The translations under genes and the position numbers were made by a program. Source: Octopus vulgaris (taxonomy: Eukaryota). From it: DNA of 64,000 nt. How positions within the stretch are numbered: position 1 is the stretch's first letter; the number at the start of each line of letters is the position of its first letter. The notes under the pieces were generated by a model. That model was not told the origin of the DNA. It made no database searches and saw only the letters and a program-made list of their open reading frames with translations. Positions 1 to 60,300 of this stretch are shown here, piece by piece. The DNA is taken from contig CATOCA020000001.1 of NCBI GenBank assembly GCA_951406725.2, positions 1,178,001 through 1,242,000 of the forward strand. Reading direction: 5' to 3'.

Positions 1-1930
1 GGATGCTGTGAATGGGCGCTGGCCCGAAAGTCGTCCTGAACAGGCGGGTCAGATATTCCTCGTCGACGTCCAGGTTCACCCCGAGCTCGTCGTCGCACCT
101 CCCCTCCACTAATCCCCTATAGAATGCTTTGGTTGTGTTGATGTCACTCATGGTCGACCCGGGACGGCATAGTTGCTTGACAGCAACGGGACACTCGCGG
201 TGCCATTCGCCCCTTCTCGGCCTCTTTTTAATCCACGGCTGCAGTTCGGTCATGGAGATGAGTTCACACCTGTTCACCGTCGTCTACGTAGAGCCTGAGA
301 TTTCGCAGTCTCAGCGCGTGTCTGCGCATCATAAAAAAAGGCATGGCCAGTCCTCCCCTTTAACGGGTGTTGACAGCAAATGGATCGCCTGACCATCGGG
401 ACGCATCCTTTCCTCAAGACGCGAAAGAGAATGCGTTCTAGTTTGGTGCTGGTAGGGTCGGGACAAGGCACGACGGTCAGGCGGTAGTAGATGACGTACG
501 CGATGTACGAGTTCGCCACCTCCGCCCGACATTTTAGGGACAGTTTCTCTCGGCCCATTACCAGGTGATAGTGGCCACCCTGCTCATTATCTCGTTCCAC
601 TTTTTCTCCATTTGGAGGTCTCGCCCAAACCAGACCCCGAGAAACTCGACCGGACCGTCGGTCCAGTGTCCCACGACGGAGGCGCTGGTGGACTGCATGG
701 GCTTGCTTCTCCAGGTGCCGAGTCGCAAGCCCACTGATTTATCCCGGTTGATTTTTGCTCCTGTCACCGCTACGTAGTATTTCAGTGTCTCGCCGACATG
801 CTCGATGTGCTCGTGGCTAGACACTATGACGGTGTCGTCGTCCGCGTATGCCGACACGCTCGTCACGAATCCCAATTCTCGTGGGATGACCCTCATAGTT
901 GGCAGCTTCCGTAATAATGGCTCGAGAGTCAATGCGTTCAGAAGCGACGAGAGGAGGCATCCCTGACGGACATAACGTGCAATGTCTAAAGGTTTCTATA
1001 GAAGTCCATTTACACGAATTACCGTACGGATGCCTGTGTACAAAGCGGCTATCCAGCCACGGAAGACGGGACCGAATCCAGCCGCTCTGAGGACAGCTTC
1101 CAAGTATCGATGGTCTACCCTATCGAAAGCTTTCGATTGATCCAAACTGATCTGCGCTCCACCCGTGCTAGGTTCGTTAACTACCCTGTCTATGATGTAG
1201 CGCATCAGGTGGCGGTCGTCATGGATGCTCCGGCCCGGCACGGCGCACGTTTACGCCTTGTCGACCAGTTTCTCGATGACAAGCGCCAACCTCTTGGCTA
1301 ACACATTGGCCAAAATTTTCAAGTCTGCATTCAGCAGAGTAATGGGCCCAAAGTTATCTATAACATTCCCCTTGTTTAGATCTTTCTTCAGCAGTGTTAC
1401 GGCTCCTCGGATCACAAAACCAGGAATGCTCCAGTTTTGCTGCCAGCTGCAGTACACCGCTGCCAAGACGTCTCCAAACAAGTCTGGCATACAACTGTAA
1501 AGCTCGTGGTGTAGACAAACAAAACCCGTCGATTTGTCTCTCGAGCATTCTGCCATCGCGTCCTGCTCTTCCGCCGCCCTGATGGCACCTTCGCAGCGCG
1601 CTGCCTCTCTTGTCGAGAATCGTGGTAGGCTGTGTAGGTAGGTACCGAAGTCCACCCTAAGTTCTTGCTCGCCACTAGTCCCGAACAGTCGGGCAAAATG
1701 CTGTTGGAAGGCCTCACACATTTTACTTGGCTCGAGCAATTCGCGCCCCTGTTCATCTACCAGAGACTGAATGGTGCCATTGTTGCCCTGTTGCGCCTCT
1801 GCCACCCGGGCTTCTCTCGCGGCTCTAACGCCTTCGATCATTAGAGCACGCATCATAGATCTGACAACACACCCTTCGTGTTTGTCGTTGAAGTGTTGGT
1901 CGAGGGCCAACCTCGCCGCCAAAACGTCGG
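1..1930 (-). mobile_element. L1/Tx1-clade non-LTR retrotransposon ORF2 (RT) remnant, frameshifted and 5'-truncated
   Basis: Consecutive minus-strand ORFs carry RT motifs: 'NFGPITLLNADLKILANVLAKRL' (1251-1991), 'SLDQSKAFDRVDHRYL' (996-1241), 'SAYADD' and 'FLGVWFG' (558-932). GC-rich relative to flanks; ends at a (GATA)n tract. Confidence 0.9.
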
Positions 1931-2029
1931 ATAGATAGATAGATAATTTAGATAGAGCGAGAGAGACAGATAGAAACATACAAAGATACATACATACATA
2001 CTTATATATACATACATACTTAGATAAAA

Positions 2030-2410
2030 AGAATAATTTTAAAAATCGGTATGCTAATCACGTAGCCATCTTCCGACATCAGGACACAAGCAAAGCTAAG
2101 TTCTCTGCCTATTCTTTATTAACATTTTGTAATCTTTCCAGCCCTTTAATTTAAGAGCTAAAAAGGATTACACTTTCACCTTTTCTACTTTTTCATTTTT
2201 AGATTTTTGTGTTTTCATTTTCTTTTTTTTTTTAACTTTCTACATTTTCTATATGCTATATTCTCAGTTTTCTCAAGTTTCTTCTCTTATTCATTTTTCT
2301 TTAGTTCGTAATGATATGTTGTTTGTGCCTGGTGTATTTGTTTGAGATATCCCCCAACATATGAAACTGAACTTAAAGTCAGGTACTGTGTCCATTAAAT
2401 AAATAAATAG
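2030..2410 (+). mobile_element. Penelope-like element 3' remnant (GIY-YIG fragment plus terminal region)
   Basis: Near 2032 the sequence translates NNFKNRYANHVAIFRH, like the FKxRYxNH motif of PLE endonucleases. A decayed hammerhead-like motif (GAAAC...GTC AGGTAC) lies near 2325-2386. Confidence 0.4.
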
Positions 2411-2859: not shown

Positions 2860-3977
2860 TTCGAAACTTTGATTGTGATGTCTGTTTATTTCTCCCCCCT
2901 GAATGTCATTCTTGGTACAAAATTAAGCAGTGTGTCCAATCTCATTAAAATATAAAGAAAAGTGGTAAGGTTATGTCATAAAATAGAATCCATGTGACCA
3001 ATTACATGAAAATATTCCATTGACATTTTAATCTCAATACGTTATATAAATAACCGACGTTTTATATGTCGAAGTGCTTAATTTTACACACTGTTCAATT
3101 TTCTTCAAAATCAGTTCATTATTTTATTGTGAATGATTTTGACGATTTCTGCCTTTCATCATTTTAATTTTAATTCTACTACATGAATCAGGCCTTAAAC
3201 TTTACCTAAAAGTCGAAGTTCATCAAAATCGGATGAATTGTGTAAAAGTTACAGCATAAAATACTAATCCTATGGGTGATTGCATACAATAAGCCGATTG
3301 ATATTTTAAAACGCAGTTATCGATTTTTTATCAACTCTTCATCTGGTATCAACTAATGGACATGAACTGTAATCGTTAAGAATGTCTGTAAGGAAATGCT
3401 TATGTACATTTATGCCCTTTTCAAGCTCTTTTGAATTAAATAAATACATGTCCCGTATCCCCCACCAATCATTTACCTACACTTCATATTTCATTAAAAG
3501 CGGATGAAAAATATGTAATTTACGGCCAAAAATAAAACCCCTATGGGTATTTGGACGCAAAACGTCTATTGATTTTATAAAACCACTGCTCCGGCCCAAT
3601 TACCAATTTTTTTCTCAACGTCATATACTGAAATCAACTCACTGCCATGAGCCTTGCTCACTCATCGACTTTCATTTAAGTGGGACAAAAAATGCAAAAG
3701 CTGCTGGGAAAATAACATCGTTATGGGAATATGCGAGGTTAATGAACAAAATTTTAAAATGTCGCCATTGTTTTCAAATTACGTTTCACATTTTGTTTGA
3801 AAAAAAAGTGTGTTAATACTTTTGTTAATGCCTCGTTAAAAAGCATTGGCCAAAATCGGTACCGCTTGGGATTGGGGATTTGAAAAAAATGAAAACACAT
3901 TCAAACAATTTTTAAAGAGCTTCCTGCCATCATTTCAAACGTTGAGGTGAAAACAAAATTGAAAATCTTCACCAGAG
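2860..3977. repeat. ~1.1 kb interspersed non-coding repeat, homologous to 39615-40733
   Basis: Colinear shared blocks, e.g. CAGTGTGTCCAATCTCAT, CATCAAAATCGGATGAATT, TTTAAAATGTCGCCATTGTT, AAAGAGCTTCCTGCCATCAT, ending at TCACCAGA in both copies. Confidence 0.85.
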
Positions 3978-4601: not shown

Positions 4602-5790
4602 ATGGCAAAGAACAATGGAAAGTAGGTGGAGTGGGAATTTATACCACCCAAAAGATGATTAAAAGAACTTGAAAGTAAGACGGTGGTTTTGAGGACCTAC
4701 TCTAGGATCCTCGACGCCATTGCCGTTTTCAAAAAATATTAACGAAAGAGAGATGGCAGAATTTAAGCCAGCTATTAAGTTTATCACTCGGAGGGTCAAA
4801 TATGCAACCGTGTGGTACTATTTTACTTCCCAGCAGCGGATTGTGATTTTGCGTGCCAGCTCCTGGAAGGCAATGAAATTTTGTTTCTTCCCACTTATTG
4901 TGGGAAGAAGTTGACGAGGGCTTGGGTTTGCGGCTTTCCACCCGGTGCTGAGCCCGAATGGATTGGAGATACTATCCGCCGGGGTCTGGGTGGCAGTAGC
5001 ACCAAGCTCTTCAATGTAAATATTCTGCCTGCGGCTTACTGGGAGGGGTCAAAAGCTGTTTTGACCCTCTGGACCAAGTCAGCCGAAAGTCTGGTATTTC
5101 CAGACTTTTTGAGAATCGGCTGGTCCAAGTATCCAGTGATGCTTGAGGGAGCATCTCCTCCAAGTGTTATCGGTGCCTTGAACCTGGCCATATAAAAAAG
5201 AACTGTCCTCAACGGCAAAGCAAAATCCTGGAGCGGTTAACGGATACCTCTGTAGAAGAAGGAAAGCAGGCGGCCGAGGAGATAGAGGATGCCTCAAAGA
5301 AGAGCCGCAAAAGGAATAAGGTGAGTAATAATGGGTGCTCACCGAAGGATTCTGGGAATGCGGGAGGGGAGGCACATACTCCGGTCACGGACGAGATGCA
5401 CCCTCCCCCAGTCAAGAAGCAAAAAGAGGATAAAGGAGAAACGGGATATTGCCGACAGTCGGAGACATGAAGCCTCATCGGTGTGGGTCGTGCCACTGGC
5501 GGGGCGGCGTGGGTAGACACACTTGGTAAGAATTGTTCCGCCAATGGTAGGATTGACTACCTCGGACCTGGAGGAGAAAGAACTGCTGTTCTTCTGTTAT
5601 AGAGGAGGAGTGGTGGAAAAGGTGGTGGTAGAACACTACAAGGGAGTACCTTTGGCCTTCGCACGGTAACCCGAATGGCCTCCGCAGATGGCTGTGGAGT
5701 TCATAACGTTGCGCATGTTTCATAGGCTGGGGGGACTAAAAGAGGAATATCGCTCGTGGCCGGGTGACGCCAACTCGGAGCATGCCTTGA
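4602..5790 (+). pseudogene. Decayed retrotransposon ORF1/gag-like gene with CCHC zinc knuckle
   Basis: 5162-5209 translates KCYRCLEPGHIKKNCP (CX2CX4HX4C), frameshifted from ORF 4812-5195. No RT follows. Confidence 0.65.
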
Positions 5791-29639: not shown

Positions 29640-30099
29640 TACAATTTTTTATTTTTATATATACATTATAACATGTTTCAGTTCCTGAAATGAACCTTAT
29701 CAAAAAAAGTTATATATAAAAAAAGACAGCTCATGCCGTCAAACACAAGAAATTCATTTATAATACACAACGGAGTGAGACATCTTAGAGTTCATGTATA
29801 GTTGATATATAGTTCATGTATAGTTGATATATAGTTTGAAGTATATGTTCAAAGTGTTCGATGCAGTGGCCCACGGTGGCGATACGTATTCAATACAAAA
29901 AACAGATCAAAGTGGTGGAAAGCGGTCAATACAGAAGATTGATGTTTCCGAAAGAGCGAGGAGTTCATTTTTACCTTAAGCAATTGTGATGACCCATGGT
30001 GGATGTTCGCTGGGTGGTTCTAGTGGGTTTTGTGAAGTGCTCGGTTTTATAATGCCTGTTAGGTGGTCAATCTAGCGTAGCGTGACGTCATCAACGTTT

Positions 30100-30100
<1 letters not shown>
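29640..30100 (-). mobile_element. Probable PLE 3' remnant with hammerhead-like motif
   Basis: Minus strand near 29705-29668 reads TTGATAA-GGTTC-ATTTCAG-GAACT-GAAAC-AT-GTT; bounded by (TA)n tracts. Confidence 0.45.
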
Positions 30101-30158
<58 letters not shown>

Positions 30159-30312
30159 TATGTGTGTGTGTGTGTGCCATCGTGTCTGCGTGTGTGGATT
30201 TTAAGAATGAGTTCGTATGTTTGAGTGTATACCAATGAGCATGAGAATTATATTATACTTGTATATATATACATATATATATGTATATATATATATACAT
30301 ATATATATGTAT

Positions 30313-30430
<118 letters not shown>

Positions 30431-31286
30431 AATTAAGAGTTTAATTATAATGTCTTCACTTACGTTGTAAATTTATTTTATGCTATATAGACCTGAAGAG
30501 TAGCTCTGTATCATTGGATCGAATATAAATTTTTCAGATTATCGATTTTGATAATGTCGATTTAAATATATTGTCACGAAACGCGCCTCGTCGATTTAAT
30601 GTGCATAATTTAGTATAGTATGTTTTGGTATATTATTAATAATATACTTATATTTATATTTTATTATAGATAATTACTTTATGGGTCTGTCTCTTAATTG
30701 TATATATATATATATATATACATATGTGTGTGTGTGTAAACACACCCATATATATATACATGCATACGTATATCTATGCACACGAGTATATATCACACTC
30801 ACATACACACTCACATACACACTCACATACATACAGTCACGCATACACATATATAAAGAATATTATCTTCCAATTATTCAAGTCATTAATCAGCAACCAT
30901 GCTGGCAACACTCCTAGAAGTTATTTTATTCGAATATATTGTCCACGGTATTTAAATTTTGAAAGTCTGTGACTAATTATATCGTTTTTTTTAGGAACTG
31001 TTAAGTTACGGGGACGGAATATCTCCAGAGACTATTACACCAACTGTAATTAAAGCTCACACACACACATATACCCATGTATATACGTAAGACAGGCCTC
31101 TTTCAGTTTCTGAAAACAAAATCGAATCATGACACGAGTATATAGAATTGGACACTTGGTGAAGGCAGCACATATTAACATTGACCACTACTCCATGTGG
31201 TTGGAAATCAAGCTTCTTATTACGCAGACACGCCATTGACTTTATACACACATACACTTATATAGATATACATATACATTTATATA

Positions 31287-31344
<58 letters not shown>

Positions 31345-32425
31345 ACGCTCAAGTGGTCACACCTGTTTTATCCTGCTTTAAACACCTACACATTGGACTT
31401 ACAACTGCCTGAACTTCTGCAACCAGCAGATTTTATTGAATTTTTTCTTGAATTTTTTGCAACCCTATATTGATAAATTAATAATTTTTGACTAATTCTG
31501 AAATTGTATCGGCAGTTTATATTTGCTACGGAGTAGTTGGCGCGGTTTCGTTGGATTTCGAAAAATTAGGATATATTTACTCGGGGCTTCAGTGGTGTCA
31601 CCTCGTGTGTATATGTTCGCCTTTTCTTTTGGAGACTTTGCTGATGAAATAAGCCAATCGTAAACGGATTTAATTTAATTTCATTAAGTTCGATTGCGTA
31701 AAAATTGTTGAAACCTTGCAGGGTACAAAGTTGAAAGGGACAAATGTTTTTATTTCTCCTTTAGCTTTCAGAATTACTACTATTTTTGCGGTTTGAGTTT
31801 GGCTGCTCTTTTCAAGTGAGTTGAACGACCTGTAAGGGTCATTCCTTAATATTTTTGTTGTATATATATATATATATATATATATATTCCGTATGTATTC
31901 CAAAACCGAATTACAGATTTTGACGTATGGGGTTTCACATGTTACAGATAAATTCCTCTATTTACATAATACTGAGTTCCCATTCATTCTTTTGTTTGCA
32001 TACCGCTACTATTAATATATATATGTAGGAGAATGGATATAATCAAAGTAGATAGCCAATGACAAGGCTGGATCCTTCAGATGGTAGGTTTTACGCAAAA
32101 TATCCTTTAGGTCCCAACCGATGTAACAGTTTATTTTTTGGCAACGTAGATATACAGTCTAATCATTATTAGACTGTTGAAATAATAACTCGCGTAATAA
32201 TGGGATTGAGTTTGTATATTCAAATTCTTAATTCTCTGTCTCTCTCTCACTCTTTCTTTCTTTCATTCTATCTTTCTTTCTTTCTCTCTTTCGCTTTCTC
32301 TCTCACTCTCTCTCTCTATACATATATACTTATTAATTGAAGATATACTCATTAAAATGTTATTTGTTATAAACATTTATATATGTATATGTTAGGATGC
32401 GTGTGTGTATGTACATGTATATATA

Positions 32426-35000
32426 AAGAAAAATTGAATTCCAGATTGGGGACATCAGGGAGAGAGAGGTGAATGACTTCCTAAGAAAAGCTAGAGCAAA
32501 GAGTGCCCCAGGAGGTGATGGCGTCTCATATAAAGTCTACAAGTACTGCAATCGTCTGAGAAAGAAGCTCTTCGTCGTACTCCGAAAACTGTGGCGCGAG
32601 GAGACTATAGTAGAGGATTGGTGTAATATACCTGCCGAAAGAGACCAATGCAAAGACCATAAAACAGTTAAGGCCGATATCCTTATTGAATGTGGAAGGC
32701 AAGATTTTTATGGGAATTCCGTCGAGGAGAACAGTGACATATTTACAGAGTAACGGATATGTTGATGAATATGTTCAAAAGGCCGGAATCCCCGGGATCC
32801 CTGGATGCGTTGAAGACTGTTTTTCGATTTGGAAAGCGATCCAGGACGCCAAACAGAACAAGTAAAGTCTGAACGTGGTAAGGCACGACCTAGCTAACGC
32901 TTATTTTTCAGTGCCACACGAATTACTAATAACAGCCATGAACCACTTTCATATTCCTGACAAAGTGATAAAAATAATGTGGATGTACTATGACAGTTTC
33001 GAGGTTGGCATTGCTGCTGGCTGTACAATATCTGTCACATTGTTTATCTTCGTCATGGAGTTGGTTTTGAAAGGTGTAGATTTTCCGGAACAAATCGCCC
33101 ATGTTCAATCGCCTAAGAAAGCCTTCATGGATGACGTGTCACTTCTAGCTACAGATAAACAAATCATGCAGAATGCCCTCTTGAGATTAGACGAACTTGT
33201 AAGGGCGTCAAGGATGCGATTTAGAGCAAAAAACTCGCGTAGTCTGACATTTGTTAAGGGAGTGCAGAAAGAATTTAAGTTCCGGATATCTGAAGAAAGC
33301 ATTCCAACAGTCAAGGAAGAGCCCGTCAAGAGCTTGGGACGAGTATACGCTGGAACATTGTCAGACAGAAGTCATGGGATTGAAATTATGAAACAGGCCG
33401 AGGCTGGGTTATCAGCGATTGATAATTCGAAGTTACCAGGTAAATATAAAATTTGGTGCTTGCAGTTCGGCTTGTACCCGCGACTTGCGTGGCCACTTTT
33501 AATATACGAAGTAGCATTGTCACGAGTTGAAAGCGTTGAACAAAAATGTAATGTGTTCATTAGAAAGTGGCTTGGCCTACCTCGTATGTTGAACAGCTCA
33601 GCTCTTTATCGTAAAAGAGGTTCGTTGCAGCTGCCAATAGCATCAATAGTCGAAATATATAAGCTGGGGAAGATACGGACGGTCATGATGCTGAGAGAAT
33701 TGAAGGATATGGAAATCAGGCGTAACCCACCAGAGATGAACACAGCCAGGAAGTGGAAAGCAGAAGCAGAAACTGACGACATTTTGTCTTCTCTTATACA
33801 CAGAGATATGGTGGGAGCAACGTAGAATCATCGGAAAGGACTTGGTTTTGGCGCAGATCAATTCAGACCGTTTGCAAGCATGATGCGGAGTGAACGCAGA
33901 TCTGTTGTTAGCAACAGCTCAAAACAAGAGAAGCAGAGAGAAGAGAGCTTCATTTGATCCGATGTATTCATCAAGGTCAGATGACGAGATGGGAAGAACA
34001 TGTTGTTGAGAGCAAGATAAGTTGGGATGAGATGTGAAAGTGGACGACATCTCGGCTGAGTTTCCTGATTCGTTCATCTTATGATGTTTTGCCATCACCT
34101 ACGAATCTAGTAAGATGGAACGTCTTAGAGAATGACATCTGCAAATGTGGAAAGGTCGGTACACTAAAACATATTCTTTCCAACTGTTCATTAGCATTGA
34201 ACAGGTATACATGGAGGCACAACTTGGTCCTTCAGGTTATCTTCAATGCTATAAAGAACAAAATTCATCTCAACAACACTGAGGAAAAACCGTTGAAAGT
34301 ACCATCAAGAGATTTCATTACCTTCGTGCGACCAGGTCAGCGGATCCGTTTCAAGAAGAAGATCAAGAAACTTCCTGAGAAAAATGAAAAGTGGAACGGC
34401 TATTGGGAGGTAACAGCAGATTTACCTGGGTTCCAGGTTTCCTTTCCCATCCCAGTTTCGAAAAAAACAGATATTTTGATGTGGTGTGAAAGAAAGAAAG
34501 TTGTAAATATAGTCGAGCTAACGGTTCCTCATGAAGATAATATGGACGCCGCTCGGGCTCGAAAATTGAGCCGTTATGAAAACCTCCTCGAGGAATGTGA
34601 AGACGCAGGCTGGAAAGTGGAACATTTTCCTAGCGAAGTCGGATGTAGAGGGTTTGTTGGATACAGCGTGAGACGACTGTTGTTATCGCTAGGCCTAACT
34701 CATCGTAAAGTCAATACCACCATGACTGATATCCAATCTACAGTGGAGAAGGCTAGCCACTGGATTAGGTTAACAAGAGACGATGAGCGATGGCTAGAAG
34801 TATATTGAGTTTAACTTCATAACCAGCTGATCTAGCAAGCGGGGCCTCATATCAGTGAGGGGGGCCGGTGCGCATTGATGCCGTCGAGAGTTAGGCCCCG
34901 AAACGGCGTTCATTCTCTCCTGATGACCCATACACATGCTAGCTTCCGGTATACTGAGCTTTTAACTGGTAGCACTTGCATGTGTATGTTGTTTGCAAGA
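32426..35000 (+). mobile_element. HERO-clade non-LTR retrotransposon (RT, zinc knuckle, restriction-like endonuclease), 5'-truncated
   Basis: KSAPGGDG, DLANAYFSVPH, GIAAGCTIS, AFMDDV, CKCGKVGTLKHILSNC, RYTWRHN, TDILMW..ELTVPHEDN..RK..Y, EVGCRGF. Absent from copy A; 12-bp TSD CATGTATATATA (32414) / CATATATATATA (35001). Confidence 0.92.
34861..34926 (+). ncRNA. Candidate non-circularly permuted hammerhead ribozyme in the HERO 3' UTR
   Basis: GGGGCC/GGCCCC, ATGCCGT/ACGGCGT and GAGAG/CTCTC helices surround the GUC, GAAAC and CUGAUGA core elements. Confidence 0.7.
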
Positions 35001-37559
35001 CATATATATATATTCAAATAAATGCTCTCTCTCTGATCCACAGGTCCAGTTCACAGATCCTTGATGATCCTACTAATGGACAGTAAAGACACAGGAAACC
35101 TAGAAAAAAACCTCTATGAATAAATTATGTAAATGTCCCGCCCTGTGATTTTTATTTGTTCCTCAAGATGAAGGAGTTGAAGGGGACTGTAACAGGGGTC
35201 CTGGAGACACTCCCTTTCAGATGAGATTTCAGCTTAGATTTGTAGATTATTTTTCGAAAGCTGCACCGTGAGAGGTTCCACAGCTAAATGTGCCCCTTGG
35301 TTATCCAAACGATAATCGATGCGAGATGAAGAACTGATTTTAGTATACGTCATTTACGCAATTCGGTAGCTTAATAACACCTACGTTTCATAGGTCCGAA
35401 GACGACAGTAGTAATACAGTTTGGAAACATGGCGGTTCTGTCCACTGACATGACAGATGTTCCTCTATGGAGCATCATGTCTATGTTACCGTTGGTGAAT
35501 GAATGAGGTTCAAACTAAGAATACGTCTGTCATATTGTTTCCTATGGCTTCAACTCTATGCGTAAATTGAATGAAGTATGGGTGTTATGCCTTGCCAAAG
35601 TGCAATCCGTGTTTGGTCCAGTGCAATGTTTCATCCATATTAAGCATACCCAAACCCTAAACCTAACACTATATTTAGAGGATGTTACCTATTCTATCGC
35701 GTACAGTATACTCATATACAACAACAAGCTATAGAAGAGTACCTCTCTGTTAAATAATTTTGCTGAATTCAAATGTGGAATCCATTTTTTAGGATTACGT
35801 CTAGATTTCAAGATACCCAAACCCTCACTTTTCACTATTTTCCTCATATTTAAGGGGAAATATATTGGGAAATGTAGTACGAATGTCTATTATGGTTTAT
35901 CGATTATTTTATTAAAGGTCTGGTGTAAACATCAGGTAATGAAATAATGGCCGCAGCGAGCATTAGTCCCAGGGTATTTTAATGTGAATTAACAGACTTT
36001 AGTTCAGCCGGAGAAAAATCATCCAACATCCATGTCTTATCAAGGCAGATTGTAACTAAATACGATGCTGGGATATTGAGGATCAGCACTGAAGAAAACC
36101 ATTCAAACACAAATTCATGAAAAAATAGGCATGAACAATAATGCAAACTGTCTGTAGAAATTTTGAGATATTTGCTAGCTTTTCAGTAGAAGTTAAAAGT
36201 CCTAGCTTTGAAGACAATGCAATTTCTATGTATATTAGTACGTTCTTCATAAGCTGGTTTATTCGAAAACAAAACAAAGACATTCTCTGGATCCAGTATC
36301 TTACAATTCTGATGTGATCGTATTAAATTGATGTCCGTTTCGGATTCTGTGTGTCAAAAGACTCCCAGTTCGTCTCCAGTTCTTTCCTTCGCCTGACGAT
36401 ATTTCCAAATTATTGTCTTGAATAAAGTTCAAATTGTTTATACACCAAGAACGGGGATTTATATTTTCATACCATTGAATTCTGACAGATTTCATATATT
36501 CTTTCGAATAGGAGTAAAGCAGGCTTGAAACCGATTCACAGGATGACCAAGTCTAGAGGGAAGGAGAAAAGATGGTATTCTTCAACTGAAGAATGTTTAA
36601 GACAATATGGACTTCACTAAAGGCACTTAAAATTACTAGGTGGCGGTTTTGAACAGATATGTGGTTTAAGACTACCATTGAAATAGGCCATTAGAGACAG
36701 AGAAAGGATACAGCATAGCCGTGAAAATGGTGTTGAAACACGGTCATTTGTAATGGGCTGAAGATTAGACAAGTGTCCCTCACAATCTTACTTGTAAACT
36801 TAACCTTCGCTGGGCATTATTAGCAGTGAAGATATTTCTTGGCGAAAGTAGATCCTTTGCATAGCTAGTACAATATCTTAAAGTCCAATCCTTCTTTTTG
36901 CAGCCAAAACTTCAGACCATTTACAATGCTCAAGTGAAACACACAATGAAGAAACCTTTCTACATCTGGAACGGTGATACACATCCGGGATTGCATCGAA
37001 AGAAGGGTGACGTGGCTAAATTTTACTCTATCCCTAATAGACATACTCTAACAGCTATCTCGCAGGCAGGATATCTCTTCTCTTTGTTTTGACACTATCA
37101 CTGTCATGCTACAGTTTCGTGTAGGAGTTGGCTGAGCCCTTGACCCCACCAAGCAGGTACTACCGACTCACTCGTCTATTCCTTTGCTCCTCGATCTTAA
37201 ACCTCAGTTCGTTTTCAGTATGAACCACTGTGCTAAACACTTCAACCCCTTCATCAATCCTGCAAATGTTGGCCTGTAGCAGCTTAAACGGAACGTCCAT
37301 GGTATCTATCTCAGATTTCATTCAATTCGCGCTTAAATTATGAAAGATGAAAATACCTAACTTATTAAACAGAACATTGACTTTGCCATTCCACATCTTC
37401 AGATTTACGAGGTTTAAAGAATAACATTAACAAAACATTGCTATTTGCGTTACATTAGGATTTCTCAAATGTTTAAAACGTTCCAAATTTATTGACAAAT
37501 GGGACTGATCGAATGAATCGATCCACTTTAGTATTTGAATATTTGATTAAAACTTGAAG

Positions 37560-42092: not shown

Positions 42093-45000
42093 GTTTAGTG
42101 TTCGATTCGACAGTCTTCCGGCAGCTGCTGCAACCAAGCTGGTGCCAAACGTAATGCTCTGCACTCTTTGGAATACATCAGCAAGGTCGAGAGAAGAATC
42201 CTGACGATTTGGCTACCCAGGATTTTCTTAATTCTAGCCCAGGCCTGCGCAAAACTGGAGAGGACACTTCAGTGCTGCTGTAAAACGTGGCAGAAAAAAC
42301 ACGGGAGTTAACCGTCATGGGCGATAAGTCCATTAACATTGGCGTCAGATATGGGCACCACGGGACACCTCTGACCGTGAAAGGGACATCCATGTCCCAT
42401 TGGTTAGCTACTGCCTATCTGAAGCTGGGCAGCTCCCAGTTAATAAGTTGCTGACCCGCCACAGGCCGCCTGCTTCATTGGGTGCTTGGAGCTAAGAGTT
42501 TGACTTGAAAACACTTCAAAATTACATAAGGTCGGCACCAGGCAAACAACTAAAAGACAAGAAACCACCAGTCCTACGGTTAGGAAGCTGGAATGTCAGG
42601 GCCATGTGCCCTGGTATATCTGATGATCTACTCAGGGTTGAAGATACAAGAAAGACGGCCATCATTGATCATGAACTAGAGAGGCTTAACATAGACACTG
42701 CTGGGCTGCAGGAGACAAGACTCCCCTCAAACGGCAAACTCAAAGAACAGGATTTCACCTTCTTTTGGCAGGGAAGCGATCCAGAAGAACCTCGAAAGCA
42801 TGGCGTTGGCTTTGCAGTGAGAAACTCATTACTCTCCTCAATAGAACCACCATCAGGAGACACTGAGCGTATCCTCTCACTGCGCCTCTCGACTTCTTCT
42901 GGCTCAGTACATCTACCCAGCTTCTATGCTCCCGCTGTCTACGGCTCAGAGGAGACCAAGTACCAGTTCTACAAAGATCTCAACTGTGTCATTAAAAATA
43001 TACCAACAAATGAAAACATCTACCTTTTAGGGGATTTTCACGCTCGCGTGGGATCTGACCATGATTAGTGGCCCATTTGTGTTGGACACCCTGATATTGG
43101 CAACATGAATGACAATGGTGAGAGACTACTTGAATTTTGCACATACCATAACCTGTGCATCACCAACACATTCTTTGCCAACAAGACATCCCACAAGACA
43201 TCTTGGAGACATTCAAGATCTCACAACTGGCATCAGCTGGATCTCATTATCACACGAAGTTCCTTTCTGAATTCTATTTAACTCACCCGTACTTACCACA
43301 GCACGGATTGTGTCACAGATCACTCACTAATTAGAAGCAGGGTGACGATCCTGCTTAAAAAGTCCATCACTCCAAGAAAATGGGCCGACCACGCATTAAC
43401 ACTGCCAGAACCTCGTACCCTACACTGCGAAAATGTTTTGCTGTTTCTATCAAGTTTGCCCTCAGTAGCTGCCCAACCTCCTCTGCTGAAAGTAGGTGGA
43501 ATTATATCAGGAAAGCTTTGTATACCACATCAATAGATACTTTCGTCATGACAGAAAGGCAAGATCGAGGTTAGTTCAGAGCTGGAACCAGTTATCGAAG
43601 CAAAGCGTGTAGCTCTGATGCAATACAAGAGTGATTCTTCTACAAAATCACTCGAAGAACTCAGAAAGGCAGGAAATATAACCCAACTGACAGTCAGACA
43701 TTGTGCAAATAGGTATTGGCAGGAAATCTGTCAGAGTATCCAGTCAGCTGCTAACAGGGGCGACACCCGTGGGATGTATGCCGGTTTGAAGAAGGCCCTC
43801 GGTCCATCCGCAACCAAGTCAGCTCCTCTGAAATCAACTACTGGAGATCTCATCAAGGACCAAAGGAAGCAAATGGATAGATGGGTGGAGTACTACCAGG
43901 ATCTCTACTCACGGCAGACCACGGTAGCTGAGGTTGCAATCGAGAGTGTCAAGATCTTGCAAGTTATGAGCGAACTTGACAGTCCGCCATCTATAGAAGA
44001 GCTATAGACGCCCTAGAAAGGGTATTGACACCTTAGCAAGTAGCAAATCTCCGGGAAAAGACGGCATTCCCTCAGAGATCATCAAAGCCGGCAAAAACAC
44101 AATCCTGCTTCGGCACCTTCATGAGCTTCTGTACGCTGGGAAGAGCGTACAGTCTCTCAGGATATGCGGGATGCTAACATCATTACGCTTTACAAAATCA
44201 AAGGTGACCGTGGTGATTGTAACAATTACCGTGGAATATCTCATCTATGCACTGTTGGAAGGACCTTTGCTCGCGTTATCCTGTTCAGGCTACAACTGCT
44301 TACTTCTCGAATTTATCCGAAATCGCAGTGTGGCTTTAGAAGAAGCTGATCAACTACTGACATGATATTCTCCATACGCCAACTTCAGGAGAAGTCCAGA
44401 GAACAGAAAATGCCATTATATATGGCGTTCATTGATCTGACAAAGGCCTTTGACTCTGTAAGTAGAAAAGGCCTCTTCATCCTGCTCCAAAAAATCGAAT
44501 GTCCATCAAAGCTGCTGAGGATCATCAAATCTTTCCATGATGATATGCAAGGCACCATACAGCACAATGGATCAACATCAGCCGCCTTCCAAATAAAAAA
44601 CGGAGTAAAGCAAGGTTGTGCCCTTGTTCCTACATTATTTAGCATCTTCTCGTTGCTGCTCTCACATGCCTTTCAGACATCAAATGATGGAGTGTTTCTG
44701 CAGAGTAGAAGTGACGGGAGACTGTTCAGTCTCTCGCGCCTGTGTGGCAAGACCAAAATAAGAAGCGTCCTGATCAAGGAAATGATGCAGCTCTGGTATC
44801 ACACACAGAAGAAGCCCTACAAAGGCTCATCAGCTGTTGTGAGCAGGCATGTAAAGACTTTGGCTTACCTATCAGCCTCAAGAAGACCAACGTCATGGGT
44901 CGGGCTACACCGGACATCCCAAACATACATATTGGAGACCACAGATTACAGGAGGTGGGGAAGTTTTACCTATCTTGGCTCTACCGACACCTACAACCTA

Positions 45001-45790
45001 TCCCTTGATGCTGAGCTCAAAATACGCATTGGCAAGGCAGCTGCTGTGATGACCCAACTCTCTCTCCAAACGGGCATAGGACAACAATAAGCTGACCAAG
45101 AACACAAAAATGAAGATTTACCAGGCATGTGTACTTAGCACTCTACTGTATGGAAGTGAGACTTGGACACTATACACACGCCAAGAGCGTCGCCTAAATA
45201 TATTTCATTTGCGCTGCCTCCGGTAAATCCTTCGCATCAGATGGCATAACCATGTCCCCAACAAAGATGTCCTCAAGCAAGCAGGAATACCAAGCATATT
45301 TGCATTCCTCACACAAAGACGTATGAGATGGCTTGGACATGATAACCTTATGGAAGATGGCAGAATCCCCAAGGACATACTCTACGGAGAGCTTGCTAGG
45401 GGCACTAGGTCTGTGGGAAGACCGTTCTTACGATACAAGGATGTATCCAAAAGGGTTATAAATGCCTGCAACATCAATATTACCAACTGTCAAGCAGTTG
45501 CCAGCAACCGTGGAGATTGTCGACGTACCGTAAAAGAGGAAACTCAAAGGAGTAACAGAGAGAGGAGAAATGGAACTACAAGAAAAGATGTCAACAAGAA
45601 ATTATGACATTACAACCAGCCAGGCAAAGTCTTCGCTACATTTGCGGTGCCTGCCGGAGGGAGTGTTTGTCCAGGATAGGACTACACAGCCACAGCAGGA
45701 GATGTATTAGGATATGAAATGTAAAAACCGGACTAGATTATTTTATGCGCAACTCCATTGTCTCCCGAGACAAAAAGGATGCCAACAACA
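42093..45790 (+). mobile_element. Near full-length RTE-clade LINE (APE plus RT), inactivated
   Basis: LGSWNVRAM, LQETRL, HGVGFAV, LLGDFHARVG; NYRGISHL, FIDLTKAFDSV, GVKQGC, RWLGH..MEDGRIPKDILYGEL. 10-bp TSD ATTATAATTA at 42083-42092 and 45791-45800. Confidence 0.95.
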
Positions 45791-58349: not shown

Positions 58350-60300
58350 GGTGGGCCGGCCTGTGAAACCCACCGACAAAGCAATTTTCTAGACATCCTA
58401 CTGAAACCCTTGCTGAAATACATCAAAAGTTTCATTAGAGAAAATCCGATTAATGAAGAGGCAATATTGGTTTCCCTCGATGTTATCAATCTTTACACCA
58501 ACATCTCCCATGACTTTGGAATAAAAGCAATTAAATTCTGGTTGGAGAAGCACATCGAAGTCCTCCCGGTATGCATAAACTAGATGTTTATAATTGAATC
58601 CTTAAAATTTATACTTCAGGACAATTATTTACTATTTGATGACACATACTATCGTCAGAAATGCAGAAGTGCGATGGAGACGAAAGAAGCTCCTGTTCTT
58701 GCGAACCTCATAATGGGTTATTTTGAATTCACCTTATATGAAGTATCACTTCAGAAATATTGTTACCCATTTTACCTCTACATTAGAGAAAATTGGAAGA
58801 CATATCTAGATGACTGCTTTATCATCTGGAAGGAGAACATCGACAAACTCTTGGATTTCAAATTGACACTAGATGACATAAATAGTAACATTCAACTCAC
58901 AATGGAATACAACAAAGAATATCTCCCATTTTTAGACATCATGATAAAAAAAGTTAACAATGAAATCATAACTGACATTTATTATAAACCAACTGATTCA
59001 AAACAATATCTTCTCTTTAACTCATACCACCCGAATCACATCAAAGTAAACATCCCTTTCAATTTAGCAAAAAGGTTCTGCACGATAGTGTCTGATAGAA
59101 CAACTCGGGATGTTCGTCTTCAAGACCTCAAAACAATACTTATTGAAAGACAATATCCAGCCTCACTTATCGACGAAAGAATTGAACGTGCCAAACAATT
59201 AGACACAAAAACACTGAGAACAACAAAACATAACACCACACCTCAACTCAAAGCATTACTATTTATATCAACACACAACCACAGAAACAGTGAGTCATTC
59301 ACCACTATTGTGCAAACTCTTCCTTTGCTAACTATAGATCCAAAAATGAACGACATCCTGAAAACACAGAAACTCATCAAATGCAAAAGACAAGACAAAT
59401 CTCTAAAGAGATTGTTAACGAATGCGAAGCTTTACAAAACAACCACGATACCACCGGTTGAAAAATGTGGGCGCCCAAACTGTGGAACCTGCCCCAACCT
59501 GGTTGAAGGCTCGGATTTCCTTTTCAAACAATGACAGAGGTTCACAATCAAGACTAGTTTCATTTGTGCCTCTGAGAACCTAATTTATGTAATAATATGC
59601 TCGGGTTGCGGACACCACTATTTTGGACAAACGAGTATGACCTTTAGAAAGAGAACCACTCTACATAAAGAGCAAATCCGTTTCCCCGAACACTGACAAA
59701 TTCCTCTCAGTGAACATTTAGAAAAATGTGCAGGTAACATCAAACCAAATTTCAGAGTCTTCCCTTTCTACCAGTGCAAACACGCAATCTCTCAACTAGA
59801 ACGTTTAAATAAAGAAACTTTTTTTATTGAAAATTACAAAACACGTCTTAATATCCACGCATAACCAACTTTTATCTTTTTACATATTTCAATTCACGAT
59901 TACATTACAGTACATAAATCCCCTACTAAAAAAGGTTTTTGAAACTTGTGTCTGGCTATACACATATATAATCTCCACCCATTACCTAAAGCTGAACTGT
60001 TATCTCCCTTACCTACAACAATAACAATAATAACGACAATCAATTACCGCCATTTATTTATCTGCTTGTCAAGTAATCCTCTCGTGAATTTCGTCACACA
60101 CAATATGGACAAAATTTCTTCTTAAAAAAATATATATTCAAATAAGTAAAACATAATATCATGAATAGCGATATCAAAACCGGTTGATATATTAAAAATT
60201 ACATTCAAACTATGTAAGTGTTCGGATTTTCCTTTTTAATTTCTTATATACATTACAACTCACAACGTGGGGATAATCGAAATTCCTTTTTTCTGTTACT
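58347..60300 (+). mobile_element. Penelope-like element family 1 (copy B, less deleted)
   Basis: 316-aa RT ORF at 58584-59534 (YLDDCF, TDIYYKPTDSKQYLLFNSYHP, CGRPNCGTCP); GIY-YIG remnant follows. Confidence 0.95.

Follow-up and report, generated by a model that had tools for sequence, protein, structure and literature searches.

In type-SGC hammerhead ribozymes (HRIMA-1 and its variants), stem II directly follows CUGANGA, and in the portions of the defining paper available to us its authors assume that the CUGANGA/stem II block cannot be interrupted, no insertion above one or two nucleotides being known (Eckert, Friedrich, Weinberg, Weinberg 2023, PMC10085705). The same portions report SGC RNAs from metatranscriptomes only, with none in genomes of known organisms (PMC10085705). 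Natural hammerheads tolerate one extra nucleotide at the A9/stem II position, according to the available part of a paper on Penelope-like elements (PMC4209133). This tolerance indicates that the backbone at A9/G10.1 is not rigid; the two helices described here far exceed it. De la Pena and Flores (2001) is reportedly on the same subject. For Penelope-like elements (PLEs), Cervera and de la Pena proposed, in the same available part, the route of cutting, ligation and copying that we consider below (PMC4209133). In a study of one such element, insertion in vitro did not depend on cleavage by the ribozyme, and reads ending at the cut were absent (PMC11167929).

Here we describe a motif 53 nt downstream of the stop codon, in the 3′ untranslated region (UTR) of a LINE copy from Octopus vulgaris; the window analysed is the whole stretch of 64,000 nucleotides. 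From 5′ to 3′ its blocks are P0a, the P1 hairpin, IIa, Xa, IIIb-U-N17, the cut, Ib, IIb-GAAA-IIIa, Xb, Ia-CUGANGA and P0b (Table 1). Judged from sequence, we consider it probable that this is a hammerhead-type fold in S-G-C order whose core is opened by two helices, that it likely cuts itself, and that the element is likely copied from an RNA ring. In the literature within our reach, that is, outside subscription journals and Repbase Reports, we found no hammerhead in the 3′ UTR of HERO or any RLE LINE, nor any hammerhead opened between A9 and stem II. A text search of one supplement of PMC10085705 returned neither 'hero' nor 'retrotransposon', and the text portions compared do not cover the window family.

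Table 1. Positions in the window of the parts of the putative ribozyme and of the element that carries it.
Feature	Position	Strand	Remark
P0, 5′ strand	34832..34844	+	pairs with 34927-34942, bulged; weakened in the window copy
P1 hairpin	34845..34860	+	lies between P0 (5′) and stem II (3′), abutting both
Stem II, 5′ strand (G10.1 = 34861)	34861..34866	+	displaced upstream of the cleavage site; inner pairs covary
Helix X, 5′ strand	34867..34872	+	links the stem II strand to the stem I strand; 4 bp remain in the window copy
Stem III strand, with U16.1 (34884) and C17 (34885)	34879..34885	+	predicted cut 34885/34886
Stem I strand 3′ of the predicted cut	34886..34890	+	pair-to-pair changes on the protein tree
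Stem II 3′ strand (34894-99), GAAA (34900-03), stem III strand (34903-08)	34894..34908	+	GAAA in 26/28 families
Helix X 3′ strand (34909-14, two substitutions), stem I strand (34915-19), CUGAUGA (34920-26)	34909..34926	+	CTGANGA in 26/28 families
P0, 3′ strand	34927..34942	+	directly after A9, the place of stem II in every described hammerhead
5′-truncated, frameshifted RLE-type (HERO-like) LINE copy	32433..35001	+	93.0% identity over 2629 nt to full unit L065; PF00078 match
C-terminal ORF part with a CCHC-type knuckle and a restriction-like endonuclease region	34038..34808	+	ORF with stop TGA at 34806-08; no Pfam match
Insertion 3′ end, the region where reverse transcription likely starts	34990..35003	+	most copies end 2-6 nt past GCAAGA; putative priming site

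The initial annotation had placed GTC at 34883-85, GAAAC at 34900-04 and CTGATGA at 34920-26, together with the strands of stems I, II and III; all of these match the sequence, as do the positions it gave for ATCAG (34851-55) and for an inverted repeat (34929-39/34978-88). Three helices, P0, P1 and X, were absent from it. Its seven-pair stem III does pair, but the seventh pair is specific to this copy. It had also described the inverted repeat as a perfect 11-bp terminal hairpin, which is specific to this copy and no family trait: of 107 tails examined, 101 form only 8 of the 11 pairs and 2 form all 11. At 34929-34988 of the window, three substitutions turn the imperfect family inverted repeat into a perfect one, a pattern expected of quasi-palindrome correction. 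The suggestion that ATCAG might act as a switch by pairing with the core found no support, as P1 loops vary among families and, judged by eye, do not track N7; ATCAG itself lies in the loop and 3′ strand of the conserved P1. By eye, the P1 loop (34851-34854 in the window) holds a six-base palindrome (TGATCA, TGGCCA, GACGTC) in about 12 of the 28 families compared below, the window's subfamily not being among them; such loops could permit kissing-loop dimers.

When 34830-35000 is folded, the nested minimum-energy structure (z −2.4) forms P0, P1 and stem II and leaves the core unformed, an expected outcome with a folding program that does not allow pseudoknots. Rfam searches returned nothing at gathering score for the window and 8 related loci, and 30000-37000 gave only AT-repeat noise.

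Relatives were gathered by a profile search with the C-terminal region of the protein, in which 80 metagenome loci were fetched and 80 of 143 were confirmed; two weak loci on viral contigs were left out of the counts. A parser for the block layout was positive in 47 of the 69 related loci whose sequence runs on for 200 nt or more past the protein match, and 41 of these 47 scored at least 26. Of the controls, 2 of 69 reverse complements were positive, as were 9 of 690 dinucleotide shuffles, all with scores below 26. Among the 22 of 69 loci without a parse, many looked decayed by eye and some had no visible motif (L080, L084, L115, L121, L147, L154). The 51 parsed sequences, made up of 50 metagenome loci and L065, fall into 28 families at 80% motif identity, with a median protein identity of 46%. 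MAFFT, aligning 29 motifs by sequence alone, misplaced the window's subfamily, and pairs were counted from core anchors instead.

In these families the core letters are largely fixed where a hammerhead fixes them, with CTGANGA and GAAA each in 26/28 and U16.1 in 27/28. N7 is free (U in 14, C in 8, A in 4, G in 2), and N17 is C in 10, A in 9 and U in 9, with G in none of the 28 families and in 0/51 parsed sequences. Own partners were paired in 28/28 families for stem I (swapped partners, 96/756), 27/28 for stem III (226/756) and 27/28 for stem II (251/756), rates that are partly circular since pairing in stems I, II, III and X is what the parser selects on, as is the case for helix X, which has at least 5 bp in 25/28; pair-type variety, N17 and N7 are free of this circularity. 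P0 and N17 were unselected in the first parse, where own P0 partners paired in 21/28 and swapped ones in 140/756. In the later junction parse, which optimises P0 and P1, P0 had at least 4 bp in register in 21/28 families versus 66/756 swapped partners. The initial annotation had proposed covariation of the three helices as a check, and on the protein tree the minimum numbers of pair-to-pair changes in the first four pairs are 28 for stem I, 27 for stem III and 17 for stem II, with 28 for P0 and 27 for P1. Its main claim, a conserved and non-circularly permuted hammerhead in the 3′ UTR of a LINE, is thereby upheld by the 47 of 69 loci, the covariation and the S-G-C order, and the data support a conserved, covarying hammerhead-type fold in the LINE family as predicted from these comparisons. 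The class that it mentioned also exists in print, but as HRIMA-1, or type SGC, in the available text of PMC10085705, and not under the name "HRIMP".

A canonical stem II after A9, pairing with the bases before G12, has 0 pairs in 24/28 families, by which the canonical type-SGC arrangement is ruled out. Instead, P0, P1 and stem II, each of at least 4 bp, abut without an unpaired base in 21/28 families, and 7/28 lack a gap-free junction as parsed. Across the 21 gap-free families the 10.1-11.1 pair is G-C in 18 and G-U in 3, with G at 10.1 in 21/21. Hammerheads allow at most one or two extra nucleotides from A9 to G10.1, and here P0 and P1 intervene; types I, II and III have the circular order C-G-S around a three-way junction, and here the order is S-G-C and there is no Rfam match. 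In other respects the motif has what defines a hammerhead, namely the CUGANGA, GAAA and NUH letters and stems I, II and III adjoining the core with covariation. It appears best described as a member of the S-G-C-order class opened at a new point, A9/G10.1, with its chain ends in P0. With block C split we do not file it as a type-SGC member, yet it likely works like one.

As read from its protein motifs, the window element is an RLE-type non-LTR retrotransposon with a single long ORF, a reverse transcriptase (RT) and a C-terminal knuckle and nuclease. The window copy starts at about position 1107 of the 3738-nt unit, and its ORF is broken, with the RVT_1 (PF00078) match in its middle. Full unit L065 (3738 nt) has a 1175-aa stop-to-stop frame with RVT_1 as its sole Pfam match, in which an N-terminal zinc-finger-like motif, RT, a CCHC-type knuckle and an RLE-type C terminus, and no APE, were read by eye. 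The ELTVP.E.N and EVGCRG columns of the C-terminal region are conserved across relatives; the names of the knuckle and nuclease domains in the window ORF are those we take to apply from general knowledge of RLE LINEs. The best solved relatives of the protein are R2 proteins, with a narrow lead over LINE-1; its named relatives, proteins from fish, lancelet, bivalves and cnidarians, are unannotated. The family is a putative HERO family, as it is labelled in the initial annotation. HERO insertion is mostly non-specific or microsatellite-biased in the available portion of PMC4640811; the flanks of family copies are diverse and often TA-rich or microsatellite, which is compatible with the HERO clade but not diagnostic of it. 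With at least 2417 3′-end candidates and at least 67 head candidates in the genome, the family is young and abundant.

Copy tails diverge into the flanks after GCAAGA. Reverse transcription likely starts in this region, some 115-120 nt 3′ of the predicted cut. The window copy itself has lost pairs in X, P0 and stem I. Its downstream flank (35001-35100) is common to about 12 copies (L001-L011, L025; contigs C30, C31), which suggests that the insertion was multiplied by segmental duplication, and the copy is probably a passively duplicated, decayed and truncated relic without a further part in mobility. The unit head, which the truncated window copy lacks, holds five evenly spaced GGAAAGAC words in its first 120 nt (L065:1453-1541), three of the five flanked by 3-4 bp stems, and the heads of relatives open similarly (CAGTGAC...GGAAAG); a protein-binding hairpin array is possible there. 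Elsewhere in the window, fragments of other retroelements were noted by eye at 1251-2057 (minus strand), 44350-45090 (plus) and 58584-59534 (plus), which by their motifs we take to be two LINE-like RT pieces and one piece like the RT-to-GIY-YIG region of PLEs.

If the RNA is cut, the genome may hold a record of it in the 5′ ends of truncated copies. Copies with non-family upstream bases were retrieved by exact-match patterns of slightly differing lengths at the cut and at two control points, and 73, 18 and 38 matches, respectively, were examined. True 5′ truncations starting at unit position 3617, the first base after N17, number 12, compared with 1, 2, 1, 1, 2, 2, 0 and 0 at positions 3609, 3610, 3611, 3615, 3616, 3620, 3621 and 3622 (total 9, mean 1.1). 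A partial sample, restricted to purine flanks, gave 2 starts at the cut versus 1 and 0 at the controls. The pile-up at 3617 is, indirectly, the footprint expected of RT running off a real RNA 5′ end, and T precedes 10 of the 12 starts, which would follow if the run-off cDNA gained an untemplated A. Among 60 copies sampled by the post-cut tail alone, 1 starts exactly at the cut and 59 read through, which fits a ring and also fits mostly uncut RNA. Because of the conservation and the 5′-end peak, we infer that in the cell the element RNA very probably self-cleaves 3′ of the base corresponding to C34885. One of the 12 starts, L366, has element ORF sequence in place of a flank joined to the first base after the predicted cut, as expected from a jump from a cut RNA end.

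The layout of long copies is a further line of evidence. All 26 full-headed copies (26 of 30 loci; L175, L184, L185 and L186 were left out) are preceded in register by a tail of their own family, 8 to 1977 nt long, and none (0/26) starts at position 1 or at the predicted cut. Their joints show point differences only, have no insertions and all lie at one base; local duplication at the DNA level as the source of the tandems is ruled out by this. A whole upstream ribozyme is present in 17/26, and family copies share with retrozymes and PLEs the trait of a ribozyme at both ends and insertions of more than a unit. In the comparison of 18 two-piece loci, the upstream piece and its own downstream copy share variants absent from 53-85 other copies at L061, L064 and L191, and the two pieces of L062 share variants seen otherwise only in re-fetches of L062. 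The two pieces are not always nearest neighbours (e.g. L192, L198, L203, L205), several of these loci being older, and a 5-versus-6 G-run difference between the two pieces is common to L061, L065 and L069, which would also arise by linear inheritance.

Similar joins occur beyond the window family. In other families a tail is joined to a head before the ORF on six contigs (L081, L085, L094, L111, L112, L131), and 5 of 42 relatives' tails run into a head motif (L095, L096, L110, L119, L126); such joined metagenome contigs may be collapsed or chimeric assemblies (e.g. L094). In run X1, whose status as RNA is a guess, an internally deleted unit is represented by a self-closing contig of 1283 nt that spans the joint and the cut site. 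Its depth is even, at 76 across the head and 76-81 across the tail, in contrast to the marked tail excess in the genome; a linear partial-tandem transcript also gives a self-closing contig of this kind. No match to the deleted unit of X1 was assigned among the genomic loci examined. Contigs of X4 and X6 likewise span the tail-head joint. It is because of the copy layout that we regard a unit-length RNA ring, closed or nicked, as the fairly likely template.

Several other features were seen among these loci. Internally deleted units of 0.6-1.5 kb (L192, L194, L195, L197, L199, L203, L205, L206) keep the head and the last 300-630 nt; several are broken near unit position 750 and most have an upstream tail piece, so that they resemble retrozyme-like non-autonomous derivatives. 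Independent copies L190, L195 and L202 have a common start at a short palindromic hairpin lying 26 nt upstream of where tail meets head, which is possibly an RT stop. On L094, two ribozymes of 78% identity (1173-1293 and 4885-5017) flank one ORF and have compensatory differences in P0, II and III; the pair reflects either a chimeric assembly of two sister families or a switch of template from one to the other.

We speculate on the mechanism as follows. P0 would stack on P1, leaving stem II stacked on the A9/G12 core, and helix X would act as the tertiary contact between stems I and II. A copy preceded by at least about 176 nt of its own tail has two ribozymes, and a read-through transcript of it could be cut twice to give a unit-length RNA, the ends of which might be ligated, whether by a host ligase or by the ribozyme, or kept close through stems I and III. 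RT would prime internally, about 120 nt 3′ of the cut, and read across the joint; going more than once round the ring, it would lay down a new partial tandem, and from unjoined RNA it would make run-off copies starting exactly at the cut.

Could the same observations arise in another way? The ribozyme of the upstream copy might cut solely to set where the RNA begins at its 5′ end, in the manner of R2's HDV-like ribozyme, with the downstream copy left uncut, the tandems renewed by template jumps or by read-through of tandem loci, and no ring. The pile-up of starts at the cut, the 59 of 60 copies that read through the site and the recurrence of the G-run difference in three loci all agree with this explanation, as does template jumping, of which R2-type RTs are capable. 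However, it predicts full-length copies from the cut, and 0/26 full-headed copies start there; the upstream pieces reach up to 1977 nt, far past the cut, the joints are in register without insertions in 26/26, and private variants are shared within loci. We hold it to be unlikely.

An explanation that we consider more doubtful still is that a hammerhead-derived scaffold binds the element protein and positions priming, cutting rarely or never, and that the 5′ ends come from stalling of RT. Its appeal lies in the distance of about 120 nt to the priming region, in the position near the 3′ end in relatives, in the break at A9/G10.1, which could disable catalysis, and in the capacity that a stable pseudoknot may have to stop RT. 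Against this, an N17 that is never G and an N7 that is free are catalytic and not structural signatures, and the peak is one base wide and stands exactly at the scissile bond, not at the helix end that RT enters. As for short motifs and stems having come together by chance in a GC-rich 3′ UTR, an explanation that would sit well with the lack of an Rfam match and with a nested minimum-energy fold without the core, we give it a negligible probability: the layout is found in 47/69 loci versus 9/690 shuffles, and the more than 100 pair-to-pair changes on the tree, as covariation, already refute it. Copying from a ring is the simplest account of the conserved fold, the 5′-end peak and the run-on copies together. 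The fullest form of this proposal, to which we lean only slightly, is that of a whole clade of autonomous LINEs with a rewired four-way-junction hammerhead, possibly switchable by alternative stacking, which cuts and circularises its RNA and spreads by internally primed rolling-circle reverse transcription instead of copying a linear RNA from the 3′ end.

The motif is real and conserved, a new hammerhead variant that likely serves LINE mobility by way of circular RNA. Its split core breaks an explicit assumption on which hammerhead wirings are possible, and dozens of natural cases with covariation come from animal genomes, for which the defining paper, in the portions available, reported no non-circular permutations (PMC10085705). 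If true, the proposed function would be the first known biological role of non-circularly permuted hammerheads, and would suggest that an RLE-type LINE converged on the circular-RNA route proposed for PLEs and retrozymes. A young, high-copy family makes this long-open circular-RNA proposal testable, as the cut leaves a one-base genomic footprint. In addition, a core with two extra helices might offer a natural handle for ribozyme switches.

Compared with known ribozymes, the motif resembles type SGC, as the available portions of PMC10085705 describe it, in its S-G-C block order, in having all core letters, in the short linker that separates the strands of stems I and II and in at least two pseudoknots. 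Helix X may correspond to the fourth helix of type SGC, which joins the other strands of stems I and II, an equivalence judged from the available text (PMC10085705). Unlike type SGC, the 5′ strand of stem II lies upstream, A9 leads into P0, and the core, P0, P1 and stem II meet in a junction; and whereas type-SGC RNAs come from metatranscriptomes only, the window motif lies in high-copy animal LINEs (PMC10085705, same portions).

Among mobile elements, PLEs have a hammerhead in a partially tandem terminal region (pLTR), as in the window family, and an internal start of reverse transcription, as is likely in the window family (PMC4209133, PMC11167929). Cutting, ligation and reverse transcription beyond one unit are proposed for both. 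PLEs differ in their telomerase-like RT, GIY-YIG nuclease and type I or minimal hammerheads (PMC4209133, PMC11167929), whereas the window family has an R2-like RT, an RLE-type C terminus and a rewired ribozyme. In retrozymes, according to the available text of PMC6155905, a terminally repeated transcript is doubly self-cleaved into a circular RNA that is then reverse transcribed, a course that for the window family is proposed only. The same text describes them as non-coding and non-autonomous, with ordinary type III or type I hammerheads (PMC6155905), whereas the window family encodes its own RT, and internally deleted derivatives of 1.0-1.5 kb exist beside it. R2 and other LINEs with a 5′ HDV-like ribozyme (PMC13580325) are, like the window element, RLE-type single-ORF elements whose RNA is processed by their own ribozyme; the R2-type ribozyme differs in being of another class, in its 5′ placement and in making a single cut that frees a linear RNA.
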